From assembly GCA_000004985.1 (NCBI GenBank), contig GG738863.1: a stretch of 64,000 nt of DNA, one strand, 5' to 3'. Shown one piece after another: positions 17,930-62,915 of the stretch (positions are counted from its first letter, which is position 1; each line of letters begins with the position of its first letter). This stretch comes from Naegleria gruberi (taxonomy: Eukaryota). The notes beneath the pieces are model-generated. The model was not told the origin of the DNA. It worked only from the letters and a program-made list of their open reading frames with translations, and ran no database searches. Made by a program: the position numbers and the translations under genes.

Positions 17930-19009
17930 ATGCTGTCAGATTCTAATTCCTTCATGATGGAAGATCAACAAATGCCTCCTTCTTCGTCATCTTCTTCTGC
18001 TTCTTCTTCCCCTGCTCCTTCCTCTCCACTTTCACCTCATCATACAGCAACTTTTGAAACAAACATGCTTGATGAATATGGAAGCAGTATCAATCACCCT
18101 TCTAAGCCACTTAACACAACAAATACAGCAACAACAACACTAAATAATGCATCCAACAATAATATAGAACACATGAGATCAGCTGGCAATGATGATTCTT
18201 TACCACCTATTGCTTCCATACCACCAAACAATTCAACTTCTCGTGTTGTTAATGTTGGGCCAATTATGAATGCAATTCAAGCTTATAGTGGTAATAATGG
18301 TAATAGTACACTTGTTGATAATGTAAATGTCAGAATATCCTCCGCCTCATCTTCATGTTCAACCATTTCAGATCATTCTATGAATAATACAATGATTAAT
18401 GGACAAGCACCAAAACCACTTAATGATTTTGAAAATGTATTTGCTAGTTTCAAGAAGAGAAATAGAGAACAATACGAAAATAATAATCAATCCTCGTCAT
18501 CATCTGATCCAGTTTCATATATTAGAGATTTGGAAGATAAAATTGATTTTATGGCACAATTAGTCACTATTCAATCTGCCAAAATGAGAAAGATGGAAAT
18601 GAGATTGAAAAAATTGGAAAACTTACTTCCTCAATCAGGGGATGAATTTGTAAATTCAGGCAATCTTCATCGTATGCCACATAGTGATGAGTTATCATCA
18701 ATTAGTGATGATATACCAACATTTTCAGCACCAAAGAAGGAAAAGGGTAATAGACAACCTAATGCCTATAATATTTTCATGAAGGGAGAAATTCAACGTA
18801 TTCGAACAACTCACACAGAATTAACACAAAAACAGGCATTTAAACTTGCTGCCAATAATTGGACTTTGAAGAAATCTGAAATCCTTGGAGCTTCAAATGG
18901 TTCACAGAAAAAACCAGACGACAGAACTAGCACAGTAAGCACACCTAGTGATACTACCATGGCAGATTCACTTTCTGAAACACCACTCAATCAACTTGAC
19001 GAAAAGTAA
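17930..19009 (+). CDS. nuclear protein with C-terminal YABBY-type (HMG-box-like) DNA-binding domain, 359 aa
   Basis: Continuous ATG ORF. S/N-rich low-complexity N-terminal half and a coiled-coil-like segment. C-terminal RQPNAYNIFMKGEIQRIRTTHTELTQKQAFKLAANNWTL closely follows the YABBY domain pattern P-SAYNRFIKEEIQRIK...H-EAF-AAKNW, within the HMG-box-like fold. Confidence 0.6.
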   Translation: MLSDSNSFMMEDQQMPPSSSSSSASSSPAPSSPLSPHHTATFETNMLDEYGSSINHPSKPLNTTNTATTTLNNASNNNIEHMRSAGNDDSLPPIASIPPNNSTSRVVNVGPIMNAIQAYSGNNGNSTLVDNVNVRISSASSSCSTISDHSMNNTMINGQAPKPLNDFENVFASFKKRNREQYENNNQSSSSSDPVSYIRDLEDKIDFMAQLVTIQSAKMRKMEMRLKKLENLLPQSGDEFVNSGNLHRMPHSDELSSISDDIPTFSAPKKEKGNRQPNAYNIFMKGEIQRIRTTHTELTQKQAFKLAANNWTLKKSEILGASNGSQKKPDDRTSTVSTPSDTTMADSLSETPLNQLDEK

Positions 19010-45934: not shown

Positions 45935-46006
45935 GGGACCATGGTCTAGTGGTATGATTCTCGCTTTGGGTGCGAGAGGCCGTGGGTTCGATTCCCACTG
46001 GTCCCC
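45935..46006 (+). tRNA. trnP(UGG): tRNA-Pro (anticodon TGG)
   Basis: GGGACCA-TG-GTCT-AGTGGTATGATT-CTCGC-TTTGGGT-GCGAG-AGGCC-GTGGG-TTCGATT-CCCAC-TGGTCCC forms a perfect cloverleaf with a 7-bp acceptor stem, U33, anticodon UGG, TTCGATT T-loop and discriminator C. Near-identical to canonical eukaryotic tRNA-Pro. Confidence 0.9.
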
Positions 46007-46049: not shown

Positions 46050-47424
46050 TTATTTCCACTCTACTGGGATAGCCTTTGTTTTAAACTCCCTTTCGAACGG
46101 AACCACATTTCCTTCAGCATTCTTTGCATTATTATCATTATAAATTGCAAACACAACCTGTTCGAAATGTCCATCAAATTCCTGAATTACTTGATTGAAG
46201 AGAGCCGCCATGTGTTGAGGAGGATTTTTGTAAGCTCCACATCCCAAAGAGGATAAAACAAGTGTTGTTACATTGTGTTCGATAGCCATTGCAAATATGA
46301 GACGAAGTTTCTTCTTGACATTTTCTACAAGTGAGGAGTGGAATCTGTTTGCATTCTTTGGATCCAAATCAGGATTTGAGTAAGCAGCCACACAAACAAC
46401 ATCTGTTTTGTAGATTTTATCCAAGAATGGATATCCTTTGAGTTCACTTCCTCTAATCACGGTGACATTTGGCACATAAACACCTCCAAATTCATCGAGT
46501 GGGTATTTTCCAGTTCGTTTCTTATCCCATTTCTCAATATCTTCGAGGGAGAAGGCTAGACTTGTTCTACGGAAAAGATTTTCTTCTTGGGCTCCAGCTC
46601 CTATATCAGTCAAAATCAATTTGGTCAACCAAGCAATAAATTGATTAGATTTCAAATTGACTGAAAAACTCACCTGTTTTGTAGCCTCCACCTGGTCTTT
46701 TTGCACTTGCCATATTTAATACAGCAACCTTCCTCACAATATTTTCCTCAATTTTTGCATTCTTTTGCAACAACAATGCAGCTTCCAAACAATCTCCTTC
46801 CATCACCAATACTTGAGTGTTTTTAAATAATTTTGGTGTTTTCAAAGTCTCCAAAATTGATTGGGCAGCACTATGATTTGAATAAAACTTGGTATTCACA
46901 CAACTCTCCATCAAATCATCTCTATTAATTGAAATAATGTTATCCTCCAATAATTCCTCTCCGACTGCTTGTGTACTGATTACTTCTCTATCAGGTTTAA
47001 AATACAAATTTCTAAATGCATGGAATGTTCCTTCTTGAACCACTTGTCTCATCATCTTTAAATTTTCCTTTCCAGATTTCTGATAATTTTCAAACCACTT
47101 CTTCCACTGTTTTCCACTAAATTCATACTTATCCATATACGAATATAAACTAGCCATATTCATGTTTTGATAATACTTGTCCGGAATTGAATATTTCATC
47201 ATTGAATTATCAGATAATTCCTCAGAAGCAGCACCAGCAGCAGTAGAACTATTCACGTTAGTAGAATAAAATTGTTTCGATTGTTTCGAATTTGAATTTT
47301 TAAATCCTCCCGATCGATTATTATTATTCTTTGAATGATTATTATTCAACATTTTCAAAATGGTATGATTTGTGGTGTTGAGATTTTTTTTAAAATTAAA
47401 TTTAGCAAACGATGAACTTTTCAT
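46050..47424 (-). CDS. bacterial-type poly(ADP-ribose) glycohydrolase (DUF2263/TIGR02452 macrodomain); exons 46674-47424 and 46050-46600, 73-nt intron 46601-46673
   Basis: Splicing ...AAAACAG|GTGAGT to gatatag|GAGCTGG yields LNMASAKRPGGGYKTGAGAQEENLFRRTSLAFSLE. This reconstitutes the diagnostic PGGG-x-x-G-A-x-A-QEE-x-L-x-R-x-S-x-L signature of microbial PARG. Downstream are LGCGAYKNP-like elements. N/S-rich N-terminal extension. Confidence 0.75.
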
Positions 47425-52576: not shown

Positions 52577-54337
52577 CTAAATACTGAAAATATGATTGCT
52601 TGCTCTACACTTTTCAATACATGATTGATAGCGAGATTCATCCTTATTTGATTCCTTCTTGTTTGTAATATCAACATTGTTCAATTCATTGGACATTTCA
52701 TCTGTGATACAAGCAGAGAGACAGGTCATTTGCAAGTCAAACTTCCACTTGACGATTGAGTTCAGCTCTCTAACCAGCCTTGGAAATAATCTGTGTATCA
52801 TACGATATCTAGCTGCGAATGAATTCACCAACTTGATGTGCTGTAAAACTTTTTCAAAATACTTTTTTTCTTCCTCATCTTCAAATATGGATCTTATATT
52901 TCTTCCTTGTCCTATTTTTTCAATTATTCGAATTCTAATAGAATTAAATTGGTTAATTCTGTGACGGACAAAAACTGCCAAATTATGAAATGAATAAAGA
53001 GGAAGTATCAATGAAAAATTAAAGAGTAACAATTCAACCTTTTCGACCAATTCATTCAAACCATCTGCATTAAAATTTAAGAGCTTCAAAGTGGAATAAA
53101 GTCCGTAATTGTGCATCAGCTCAATAGTGGCATGCTTGATTTGTTTTTGAGGATCGGAGAGCTTCTTATTTGCAATCTTGTTATAGAGGAAATCTCTCAC
53201 TGAATATATTAGAGATAATGTAGAAGCTGCATTTTCTAAAGTAATACCATTATTAATAGATTCTGAATCATACTTGTTATCATTGACGTAATGATCATAA
53301 AATTTGGTAAATGATTTCCCAACAAACTTTGAATTTTCTAAATCATCATCCCCAATTGATATATGAGCCTCTCCTTTTGAAGCAATCATTTTGAATTTAA
53401 GTTTGTTTACATCATCCAAATATGGATCGTTTTCAAGGTCCTTGATATAGTTCAAATAATTCCAAGCCATTTCAGTTTGGCCATCGCCAATAGTAAACAT
53501 GGTAAGGAGAACCTTGGAAACCTTTGTACAAAAGTCAACTGGATGAGCCAATGAAGAGTAGTGCACTGACTCTCTAAAGGAATTAAGAGAACGCTCAGTT
53601 TGACTCATCGACTGTTCACACAAACTCTGCACAGCAGAAAGCAGTGTTCTTACAGAGTATTCTTTCTCATATAAATCAACATTCGCCACAATTTCCTCCA
53701 TCTGTTCTCTACTCAAAAAGTCAAAGTTAACATCCACAAAGTCAAAAAAGTAATTAACAATAGCATGATGAATGTTTCCTTTCACCAAGTTTCTCTCCCT
53801 TGTCAAGTATGTTTGTTGTTGTTTTGAGAGATAGGGATGGAATCCGTTAGTTGTTGCTCTCTTTGCTTCCTTGTTTGTTGTTGCTGATGGAGCAATTATT
53901 GCCAATTTCTTCTTCTTTGAATTGTTGTTGTTAGACATATTTACAGTTGTTATTATTGTAGAGGTATTTGTTGGTGATGTTGAAGAAGATGGAGACGATG
54001 ATGAAGAAGAGGAGTTATTACAGTCATTCTTCTTATTTCCTTTAACTCTTCCTCTCTTCTTTGGAGGTATGTATTGACAAGGTCGTTTTCTCATGATACA
54101 TTCAGAACACGATGGTTTGATACGATCACAAGCAAGGTGAGACTTTCTACAGCCTGAGCAAGCAATTTTAGCAAACTGACTCTCCAATTCATCCTTGCCA
54201 CTACTACTATTATCACTATTACTACTACTATTAATCACTTCAACAACAACACCTTGTTCTTCTTCTATTGGTTGGTTACCATTGTCCTCTCCGATATTTT
54301 CCAATTCTGCAATAAATTCATCAAAGATTTGATCCAT
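52577..54337 (-). CDS. Zn(2)-Cys(6) binuclear-cluster (GAL4-like) transcription factor
   Basis: C-SG-C-RKSHLA-C-DRIKPS-C-SE-C-IMRKRP-C has the exact C-x2-C-x6-C-x6-C-x2-C-x6-C spacing, followed by basic residues and S/N-rich tracts. First ATG at 54337 (MDQIFDEF...). Confidence 0.7.
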   Translation of the reverse strand: MDQIFDEFIAELENIGEDNGNQPIEEEQGVVVEVINSSSNSDNSSSGKDELESQFAKIACSGCRKSHLACDRIKPSCSECIMRKRPCQYIPPKKRGRVKGNKKNDCNNSSSSSSSPSSSTSPTNTSTIITTVNMSNNNNSKKKKLAIIAPSATTNKEAKRATTNGFHPYLSKQQQTYLTRERNLVKGNIHHAIVNYFFDFVDVNFDFLSREQMEEIVANVDLYEKEYSVRTLLSAVQSLCEQSMSQTERSLNSFRESVHYSSLAHPVDFCTKVSKVLLTMFTIGDGQTEMAWNYLNYIKDLENDPYLDDVNKLKFKMIASKGEAHISIGDDDLENSKFVGKSFTKFYDHYVNDNKYDSESINNGITLENAASTLSLIYSVRDFLYNKIANKKLSDPQKQIKHATIELMHNYGLYSTLKLLNFNADGLNELVEKVELLLFNFSLILPLYSFHNLAVFVRHRINQFNSIRIRIIEKIGQGRNIRSIFEDEEEKKYFEKVLQHIKLVNSFAARYRMIHRLFPRLVRELNSIVKWKFDLQMTCLSACITDEMSNELNNVDITNKKESNKDESRYQSCIEKCRASNHIFSI

Positions 54338-54597
54338 TCTATCTAATATCAATGACCAATCTTTTTTTACTTTTATCTCATGAATGTTGTCTCTTTACTC
54401 GCACTACATGCTTGAGGAAGGTGAAGTACAGATGTGGATTAATTTTTGCGCACGAGGAATTATTTCATCCAACAATTTTTTATTGTTTGATTTGGCGCCA
54501 CAAAAACGACCCAGCACAACGTCTTTTAGAAATTTGGATAAAAAAACAAATTATTTATTAACAAGCAAAGGAAGATGATAGGAGAGAAAGGAATTTA

Positions 54598-60468: not shown

Positions 60469-61507
60469 GATGACAATTAGAAGTGTTTAGGTTGGTTTAT
60501 TTTTTTAAAGTTGTTGAAAATGTTGTGTGGTCAATGGATGTGATCTTTTTAACAGATGATGAAAGAGAGATTTGGTAAGTGGTCGGATTTCGGGTTTTTA
60601 TGAACATGATAGGACTTGGATTTTCGATGAAACACAATATGTGTCCAATGCCCTAGATTCTTCAATTTGGTAGAATACCAGAACACATAGGAACACTATT
60701 TGATTTTCTTTTGTAAATCTACGGCATGATACATGTCAACAAAGATCATATTGGTCTAAAATTGGTAAATTAATTTTTTGCAAGAGTTTACAATGAGAAC
60801 GAACACAAATTGAAATGTTTAACAATAGTCATAATTTTAATAAGTTGATTTAATGATAATTCTAACGGAGGAATTACTCTTGACCCAATCATGAAATTGC
60901 TTTGCAGCTTCTAAATGAATGCAACCTGCAGAACACATGAATGGATACTGATTTGATTTTGCAAATATTATAATATAATCTCTTAAAAACATATTAGAAA
61001 CTATACCTGATGAATATAGACACCTGTTCTCCACTCAACTGGTCCAACAGCGTACGGCATGTCCACATTGAATTCTGTCGATTTTTTAGATTCATAACAA
61101 TCGGATGGTCGTACAGTTACATCGATATTGTAACTTCTATTTCCTGAAGCATTGCAAGGAACTGAAATTCCATTGTAAGTCAAAGTACCAAATGATGTAT
61201 TTCCCCAGCAGCCGTTATGTGGTGATTTTGGGCAATTTTCTACTCTGTTCAAGGTTATGGTTGCTTTGGACATTTTTTTTTGATTTTATTAGCGAATTCA
61301 CGTTTCGATCACGTTTTTTTCCAATTATTTAATATTTTTGTAAACCTTACTGTATAATATGCGCACTCGGAACATGTAATATATTAAAGAGTTGGTTAAA
61401 GACAGTTAGTGAAGGATGAACCTTGCAAGATATACCCCGAGAGAATACTACCAGATATTAAGGAAAAAATAAAGTAAAAAAAAGATCCTCTTTTATTATC
61501 AATCATC

Positions 61508-62915
61508 ATGCCATCAACAACCACTTCATCATCAAAAGCAAGTTCCTCCACTTCATCAAACACTTCATCAAATACTTCGGGAAAGAAGATTTCACCTGCT
61601 TCTTCATCGTCATCTGGGACAACAAGAGAGAAAACTGCTTCATCAAGAAAGGGAGAATCAACAAGTACTGATTTTTCTACCCTTATAAAAACCAATCCAA
61701 AACTTTCTGCCAAACCAATTACCAATAAGGATGGAGATGATATAACAGAATATTTTGATGAAACTAATGTTTTGAATGCCAAGATTGAACATTTAGTCAA
61801 TCTCATAAATCAATCCAAACATATTGTATTATATACAGGTGCTGGTATCAGTAGAGCAGCAGGTATTAGAGATTACAGATCTCCTAATGGTATGTTTACA
61901 ATAATTCTTTTCATGGAAATTAATTAAATTTCTGATAGGTGTTTGGACTATGAAAGAAAAGGGAGTAAAAACTGTAGCAAAGAAGGATGAATCAAAGATA
62001 ATCTTCCCAACTCGTACTCACATGGCTATTTCTACATTATACAATGCTGGAAAGATTCAATATGTAACTTCTCAAAATGTTGACGGATTGCATGTTAAAT
62101 CAGGAATTCCAAGAAAGAATATGAGTGAATTGCATGGTAATACCAATGTTGAGATTTGTCACAAATGTAACATAGAATATGTCCGTAATTTTAGATGTAG
62201 AAATAACAAGAATGTTCACGACCACAGGACTGGAAGATTCTGTGAAAAGTGTAAAAGTGAATTGGAAGATACAATTATTAATTTCAATGAAAATTTACCA
62301 ACTGATCAATTGGAAAGAGCAGAGGAGAATGCTTCCAAGGCTGACCTGGCTATTGTCGTAGGAACAAGTATGAGAGTTAATCCTGCATGTTCCCTTCCAC
62401 AGATGTGTAAAGAAAATGGAGGAAAATTAGTCATTATCAATCTCCAATTAACTCCAAAAGACAAGAAGGCAGATTTGAGAATTTTTGCAGAAGCTGACAA
62501 GGTTATTGATACGGTAATGAAAAAGCTGGCTTTGGAAATACCTCCATTCATTCTAGAAACTGAATATTCATTAGAAAGCTTTGAAAGTGTCAATCCAACA
62601 AGTGAGAAAAAGTTAATTGGATTCAAAATTACTAGTCCATCTCCTTTAGGACCAATGGGTTCAAAGGTATTGAGATCAATCAGCCTAAAGGTTCACGGCT
62701 CAAAAGTAGTGAGCTTTAAGGATACTATGATGCTCGATCCAATTCCATCCGATTGTACAAAGATATCAGCAGTACTGAAGTATAATCTGAATTCAATTGA
62801 TGAGAAGGAAGCCAAATGCACTATTGAACTGGAAAATCCACTGAACATTACTTCGAAATCCTTTGCTTTAAAGGTGAACACATCAACCAATGAAATTACA
62901 GTTACAGAAAAGTAA
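61508..62915 (+). CDS. class-IV sirtuin (SIRT6/SIRT7-like NAD-dependent deacylase/ADP-ribosyltransferase); exons 61508-61889 and 61939-62915, 49-nt intron 61890-61938
   Basis: Exon 1 has an S/T-rich N-terminus and GAGISRAAGIRDYRSPN-G|GTATGT. Acceptor tctgatag|GTGTTTGG gives GVWTMKEKG...PTRTHMAISTLYNAGKIQYVTSQNVDGLHVKSGIPRKNMSELHGN...CHKCNIEY...CEKC (Zn-Cys4)...VVGTSMRV...LVIINLQLTPKDKKADLRI, collinear with SIRT6. Confidence 0.8.

Follow-up and report, generated by a model that had tools for sequence, protein, structure and literature searches.

Positions 46050 to 47424 of the window, the term used here for the whole stretch of 64,000 nucleotides analysed from Naegleria gruberi contig GG738863.1, hold a minus-strand gene of two exons separated by one short intron. 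The features of this gene and the two neighbouring genes of interest, a tRNA-Pro gene and a sirtuin gene, are listed in Table 1. The locus has already been annotated in N. gruberi NEG-M as NAEGRDRAFT_66573 (EFC45417.1, XP_002678161.1, UniProt D2VCH5), where its product is named only as a predicted or uncharacterized protein. The reference model (P0130) has 409 amino acids that are identical to residues 25-433 of the spliced product described here, and it contains the same 73-nt intron. It differs in its start, which is placed at the second in-frame ATG (47352-47350) rather than at the first (47424). The idea that the gene was unannotated was rejected, as this N. gruberi model was found inside a 90% cluster represented by another sequence, P0001. 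The latter is the top homology match and is a prokaryote-style call of exon 1, 259 amino acids long, on an environmental contig.

Table 1. Features of the PARG locus and of its neighbours in the window
Feature	Position	Strand	Description and evidence
tRNA-Pro(UGG)	45935-46006	+	ARAGORN; Rfam RF00005, 62.4 bits
PARG exon 2	46050..46600	-	Remainder of codon 251 to codon 433 and TAA stop (46052-46050); holds QEE, the remaining macrodomain and the diphosphate-binding loop
GCGAY, codons 370-374	46230..46244	-	Macrodomain diphosphate-binding loop (G-x-G-x-aromatic); aligned to DrPARG GCGVF
Gln255-Glu256-Glu257 (QEE)	46581..46589	-	Columns invariant in 52 homologues
Spliceosomal intron	46601..46673	-	73 nt, GTGAGT...ATATAG, phase 1 in the Gly251 codon, 29% GC
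PARG exon 1	46674..47424	-	Codons 1-250 and first base of codon 251 (ORF list, splicing, translation); holds the low-complexity basic N-terminal extension (aa 1-74), the N-terminal helical region and the GGG loop
Gly245-Gly246-Gly247, GGG of the PARG signature	46684..46692	-	Positions G171-G173 of alignment A1
First ATG of exon 1	47424-47422	-	
Sirtuin, SIRT6/7 class	61950-62915 and upstream exon (~61.5-62.9 kb)	+	PF02146, 82 bits

Without splicing, the minus-strand open reading frame that begins at the ATG at 47424 runs to a stop codon at 46647-46645, eight codons inside the intron, and its product ends in ...PGGGYKTGEFFSQFEI (written also as ...AKRPGGGYKTGEFFSQFEI) before the stop. A second frame of the same strand, which includes ...GAGAQEENLFRRTSL..., extends without interruption from 46715 to its stop codon at 46052-46050. 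Excision of 46673-46601 yields a single coding sequence of 1302 nt (433 amino acids) that is collinear with the homologues and reads ...AKRPGGGYKTGAGAQEENLFRRTSL... in the junction region. The peptide spanning the junction of the spliced protein is ...GGGYKTGAGAQEE....

A GT-AG pair is by itself weak evidence for an intron here, because 60 in-frame, stop-free GT-AG combinations can be enumerated near the junction. The family consensus PGGGYxxGAGAQEENLFRR is reproduced without an indel by only one of the 60, that of the 73-nt intron, and the alignment to the Deinococcus radiodurans PARG crosses the splice junction free of gaps. On this comparative support and on the existing annotation the intron is classed as a spliceosomal U2-type GT-AG intron. 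The coordinates, the length and type of the intron and the position of the splice between GGG and QEE had all been given correctly in the initial annotation. Retention of the intron introduces an in-frame stop and a frame shift, leaving a product of 259 amino acids without QEE and the greater part of the macrodomain; splicing would therefore be obligatory for activity. Two minor variants of this arrangement could be envisaged. With its tandem TAG|GAG acceptor, the catalytic-loop intron could be spliced to give isoforms with either an X7 or an X6 spacer in the signature, or its retention could turn the enzyme off.

The candidate start codons are M1 (47424), M25 (47352, the annotated start) and M75/76, which is equivalent to the start in Naegleria lovaniensis. 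The N-terminal extension, put at 67 amino acids or at residues 1-74, is basic, acid-free and of low complexity.

The spliced protein was scored by HMMER at 96.5 bits against PF10021 (PARG_cat_microb, formerly DUF2263; cut-off 23.5) and at 115.6 bits against NCBIfam TIGR02452 (cut-off 50), which agrees with the initial assignment to the DUF2263 microbial-type PARGs. Neither canonical PARG nor MacroD gave the best profile match. The canonical PARG profile (PF05028) returned no match to the spliced protein at E<=1, Macro (PF01661) remained below its threshold (13.5 bits, cut-off 22), and the MacroD-type equivalogs of NCBIfam reached about 13-15 bits against cut-offs of at least 200. PF10021 is the only domain present apart from this sub-threshold Macro match, and the accessory domain of canonical PARG is absent. 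A sequence search of solved structures gave the PARGs of D. radiodurans (DrPARG, 2.4e-15) and Thermomonospora curvata (TcPARG, 4.7e-13) as best matches. An AlphaFold2 model built from 52 homologues (pLDDT 91.2, pTM 0.91) was compared with known structures using Foldseek, and the best match was TcPARG 3sih (E 5.8e-19, TM 0.83 to target), with DrPARG at a TM of about 0.80. Overall, the 3sih, 3sig and 5zd* matches range from E 1e-13 to 6e-19 and from TM 0.78 to 0.83 to target, whereas other macrodomains score 1e-6 or weaker and the canonical PARG of mouse scores 2e-5.

The residues associated with catalysis are intact in the spliced protein. The PARG signature consists of GGG (245-247), a spacer of seven residues (YKTGAGA) and QEE (255-257). 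Across the 52 homologues G246, G247, Q255, E256, E257, N258, R261, R262, G370 and G372 are invariant, and G245 is conserved in at least 90%. In the diphosphate loop, numbered as in alignment A1, G296 and G298 are invariant and C297 and A299 are conserved in at least 90% of the homologues. Glu257 aligns with the catalytic glutamates of DrPARG (Glu112) and TcPARG (Glu115), and the E112A variant of DrPARG is known to be inactive (PMC6445106). As regards the ribose cap, which in obligate exo-glycohydrolases of the TcPARG type pairs Arg268 with Asp261, the equivalent of Asp261 is present (D408 of YNDNN), and the HMMER alignment, which is unreliable at this point, puts Asn415 at the cap position beside an insertion of two residues. 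In sequence and in fold the Naegleria protein is a bacterial-type PARG, and we infer from its family, fold and intact residues that it is catalytically competent.

The Naegleria PARG shares with TcPARG (PDB 3SIG/3SIH) and DrPARG (PDB 5ZDA-5ZDG) the Pfam and TIGRFAM family, the macrodomain fold (TM 0.80-0.83 to target), the GGG-X7-QEE signature and the G-x-G-x-aromatic diphosphate loop. Sequence identity to these two bacterial enzymes is nevertheless only 21-25% in structural alignments. It differs from both in possessing a longer N-terminal helical region and a low-complexity basic extension, and in being encoded by a spliced eukaryotic gene. The aromatic residue of the diphosphate loop is Tyr, as against Phe in TcPARG and DrPARG, and the ribose-cap position, where the alignment is uncertain, holds Asn as against Arg268 of TcPARG and Thr267 of DrPARG. 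The N. lovaniensis homologue C9374_004914 has the same architecture and a collinear catalytic loop but does not possess the N-terminal low-complexity extension. Canonical PARG (PF05028; mouse PARG, PDB 4NA0) is distantly related in its macrodomain core and is known to share the GGG-X6-8-QEE catalytic signature and the mechanism (PMC6445106). The structural match of the Naegleria protein to the mouse enzyme is weak (E 2e-5, TM 0.29 to target), and the accessory domain of the latter is missing.

C9374_004914 (P0002) is also the closest named homologue, with 59% identity over 360 columns and collinearity at the junction. Its gene contains two introns, located within PELG|GVYVP and GC|GAY, and is uninterrupted at the GGG/QEE site. 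Next in identity come two intronless open reading frames (48% and 44%) from environmental contigs with a GC content of 37-43%; on one of these contigs a eukaryote-type protein kinase gene adjoins. Since the introns of N. lovaniensis lie elsewhere and the environmental relatives have none, intron positions within this small clade of Naegleria and environmental sequences are lineage-specific. A second PARG copy was sought in the window with tblastn and none was found.

Relatives are found in a variety of other eukaryotes. Those with names include Heterolobosea sp. BB2, Ancoracysta, Lapot, Anaeramoeba, two cnidarians and, amongst the Amoebozoa, Balamuthia, Copromyxa, Stenamoeba, Ceratiomyxa, Cavostelium, Flabellula, Pyxidicula and Pelomyxa; Pandoraviruses possess them as well. 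Prokaryotic relatives number at least 575 in species-representative genomes and belong, among the matches listed, mostly to Bacteroidales, Spirochaetales, Lentisphaeria and similar groups. Phylogenetic analysis of 120 sequences, including bacterial homologues, was performed by neighbour joining with 100 bootstraps, comparing monophyly of the eukaryotes with nesting in bacteria. Shallow nodes of this tree are supported. The window gene groups with that of N. lovaniensis (bootstrap 92) and then with the two environmental sequences (bootstrap 75), and this group falls in a loose assemblage in which eukaryotes and Pandoraviruses predominate, the exception being a cluster of 55 Bacteroidaceae-like members (bootstrap 100). 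Bootstrap values at the deep nodes are 0-3%. An ancient horizontal acquisition of the Naegleria PARG is possible.

The occurrence of this family in N. gruberi has been reported before. According to Perina et al. (2014, PMC4245714), N. gruberi has up to seven bacterial-type PARGs (bactPARGs), of which three retain an intact signature, and such proteins occur in every eukaryotic supergroup but Plantae. A bacterial-type PARG is also ascribed to "some protozoan species" by Cho et al. (2019), in their list of eukaryotes with an enzyme of this type. The initial description of microbial-type PARGs in eukaryotes as sporadic is thus to be taken in a relative sense, given their range over the supergroups and the many amoeboid protists encountered here. 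The present locus is presumably one of the three with the full motif. In a literature search no paper was found that names this locus or reports an assay of it, and none that treats Naegleria together with DUF2263. Because the gene model, its exact intron and the presence of the family in N. gruberi were already public, most of the interest claimed for the locus is removed.

The two neighbouring genes were also considered. The tRNA-Pro gene and the PARG gene are convergent, and the 44 bp stated in the initial annotation to separate them is the difference in coordinates, with 43 nt intervening between the tRNA and the PARG stop codon. The tRNA is real; its adjacency to PARG is not conserved. 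No tRNA and no synteny were found beside the homologues in N. lovaniensis and on the environmental contigs (loci L001, L003 and L006 were examined for tRNA), and in a compact genome such as this the adjacency is therefore apparently incidental. The sirtuin is likewise real and SIRT6-like, its best matches among solved structures being SIRT6 (5e-44) and SIRT7 (2e-39). No evidence of linkage to PARG was seen: the two genes lie 14.5 kb apart, and the interval holds about eight predicted, unrelated genes, including those of an F-box protein, an M19 dipeptidase, a Zn2Cys6 protein and a 1956-aa F5/8C protein. There is no support for a functional cluster of PARG, sirtuin and tRNA.

Two readings of the locus dispute that it is a working eukaryotic gene. 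The PARG could be an unspliced or decaying pseudogene, or give only the truncated product of 259 amino acids, with the supposed intron a fortuitous GT...AG spanning a break in the frame. The 60 GT-AG combinations near the site lend this some plausibility, since any such pair alone is weak evidence, but it is highly improbable in view of the single combination among them that restores the family consensus without an indel. The donor GTGAGT is also strong, and both exons are open and conserved as far as the C-terminus of the family, with all invariant family residues intact. The sirtuin gene of the window contains a similar short AT-rich GT-AG intron (49 nt, GTATGT...TGATAG). Comparison between strains points the same way. 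An environmental strain contig (L002), 98.8% identical to the window, spans exon 1 and the whole intron and keeps both GT and AG. Its differences amount to 5/104 in the intergenic spacer, 2/73 in the intron and 4/223 in codons 1-74, as against 1/528 in codons 75-251, where the one change is silent and no amino acid is altered. The other reading, contamination of the assembly by bacterial DNA or a very recent transfer from a bacterium to Naegleria, could appeal to the predominantly bacterial distribution of the family, with its 575 or more confirmed relatives in bacterial and archaeal species genomes, and yet its probability is close to nil. Five other open reading frames of the window match N. 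gruberi NEG-M proteins exactly, all on one scaffold of 467,654 bp, and the PARG gene sits in this scaffold amid eukaryotic genes (MYND, F-box, Vps39, SIRT6-like). It has a spliceosomal intron, and its GC (34.6%) and GC3 (29.8%) fall inside the range of five neighbouring genes. Its nearest relatives are those of N. lovaniensis (59%), the two environmental sequences (48% and 44%) and Heterolobosea sp. BB2 (42%), whereas segment identity to bacteria is at best 46% among the matches listed. Contamination and recent transfer are excluded because the closest relatives are eukaryotic, bacterial identity is no higher than this among the matches listed, and composition is native; it is a eukaryotic gene of long residence. 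The initial claim of a spliced eukaryotic gene, as opposed to contamination, is accordingly upheld by the same intron in NAEGRDRAFT_66573, by the native GC and GC3 and by the introns of the N. lovaniensis homologue.

NAEGRDRAFT_66573 is thus very probably a two-exon nuclear gene for a single-domain bacterial-type PARG macrodomain hydrolase. This level of confidence applies to gene identity and hydrolase function together and is lower for the exact substrate. In the mechanism proposed, the single 73-nt intron, which lies where the catalytic loop is encoded, would have to be excised first. By analogy with TcPARG and DrPARG, the GGG and GCGAY loops would then hold the ADP-ribose diphosphate of the terminal PAR unit, and Glu257 would provide acid/base catalysis. 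Cleavage of the terminal ribose-ribose O-glycosidic bond of the PAR chain would free ADP-ribose, so that the predicted PARG would reverse the activity of the amoeba's PARPs, which N. gruberi is known to possess (Perina et al. 2014, PMC4245714). Bacterial-type PARGs are, however, also known to hydrolyse ADP-ribosylated RNA and DNA (PMC11833690), and PAR may be neither the sole nor the main substrate of the Naegleria enzyme. With gene and fold unchanged, the physiological substrate might be a nucleic acid that carries ADP-ribose, either at the 2'-OH of RNA or at 5'-phosphate ends, or another mono-ADP-ribosyl adduct, instead of protein-bound PAR, for example in the repair of damage caused by ADP-ribosylating toxins of bacterial prey. 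SCO0909 and DRB0099 provide a precedent, as they undo the RNA ADP-ribosylation catalysed by RhsP2 and act on ADP-ribosylated phosphate ends, for which the catalytic Glu is needed (PMC11833690). Moreover, up to seven bactPARGs in N. gruberi seemingly exceed what simple PAR turnover needs, and the named eukaryotic homologues cluster in bacterivorous amoeboid protists and Pandoraviruses. Such a substrate is nonetheless unlikely to be the principal one, as the protein retains the complete PARG signature of enzymes known to degrade PAR, N. gruberi carries PARPs, and no linked toxin, ART or RNA-repair gene lies within the window; activities on PAR and on nucleic acids are in any case not mutually exclusive. 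Less probable again by a wide step is the suggestion that the multiple bactPARGs of N. gruberi, the present one among them, are antidotes that remove ADP-ribose from toxin-modified RNA, DNA or proteins, and not housekeeping erasers of PAR.

If the antidote reading were to hold, with the toxins coming from ingested or competing bacteria, it would fit the concentration of the family in amoeboid protists and in the giant viruses that infect amoebae. The intron positions, which are not common to N. gruberi and N. lovaniensis, are a modest addition to what is known of intron turnover in the genus. The present PARG is a clean textbook case of a "bacterial" enzyme family that can be shown to reside in a eukaryotic genome, on the basis of its intron, its native composition, a congeneric homologue with introns of its own, and the lack of a close bacterial donor among the matches listed.

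The bacterial-type PARG gene shares the window with several other genes, which are listed below together with two features of the PARG gene itself.

Features of the PARG gene and other genes of the window
Feature	Window position	Strand	Details
DUF4116 repeat protein, 594 aa	4300-6084	-	13 repeats, 490 bits
ORF with YABBY C-terminal domain match	17930-19009	+	PF04690, 48.8 bits (cut-off 28.6)
PARG tandem acceptor, NAGNAG type	46598-46602	-	ATATAG/GAG/CTGG
PARG N-terminal extension, 67 residues	47224-47424	-	codons 1-67 of the long ORF
ORF with fungal-type Zn(2)-Cys(6) binuclear cluster domain	52577-54352	-	PF00172, 23.8 bits
SIRT6/SIRT7-class sirtuin gene	61500-62915	+	49-nt GT-AG intron

The sirtuin intron (GTATGT...TGATAG) separates ...GIRDYRSPNG from VWTMKEKG..., and exon 1 of this gene begins with a Ser/Thr-rich low-complexity stretch. 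The YABBY family is usually taken as plant-specific, and the PF04690 match may come from no more than the HMG-like helix-loop-helix in the C-terminal YABBY domain.

Among the best 120 matches of the PARG homology search (all E 8e-44 or better), which are cluster representatives only and can therefore hide cluster members, N. lovaniensis is represented, and neither an N. fowleri protein nor another N. gruberi paralogue is found. Possibly no orthologue is annotated in N. fowleri. Unless they are hidden within a cluster, the remaining N. gruberi bacterial-type PARGs known from the literature must be farther from the window PARG than many bacterial sequences. The metagenomes of project PRJEB11402 are the source both of a contig 98.8% identical to the N. 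gruberi PARG region (L002, ENA ERZ929261) and of a more distant, intronless PARG homologue with 44% identity (L006, ERZ929215); Naegleria-like amoebae are therefore present in those samples. Exon 1 of PARG was called there by prokaryotic gene callers as a separate 259-aa 'protein'.

The N-terminal extension contains 10 Lys/Arg and no Asp/Glu, along with 15 Asn and 12 Ser, and may be a targeting peptide or merely a disordered tail. A basic extension without acidic residues is likewise found in the Heterolobosea sp. BB2 homologue, whereas the N. lovaniensis homologue has none. This part of the protein diverges more quickly between strains, with 3 amino-acid changes as against none in the following 177 codons. 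Candidate start codons are M1, M25 and M75/76.

Use of the second AG of the tandem acceptor would give a 76-nt intron, keeping the frame with the loss of Gly251 and shortening the spacer of the signature from X7 to X6, which is within the GGG-X6-8-QEE definition. The position of this single intron, at GGGYKTG/AGAQEE, is not conserved: N. gruberi PARG (window 46050-47424) has no intron position in common with the N. lovaniensis homologue (L001:6001-7210), whose two introns lie at PELG/GVYVP and GC/GAY. The two nearest environmental homologues (L003 and L006) possess no introns. These differences between the two Naegleria species, together with the intronless environmental genes, suggest that the PARG gene has recently gained or lost introns within Heterolobosea.
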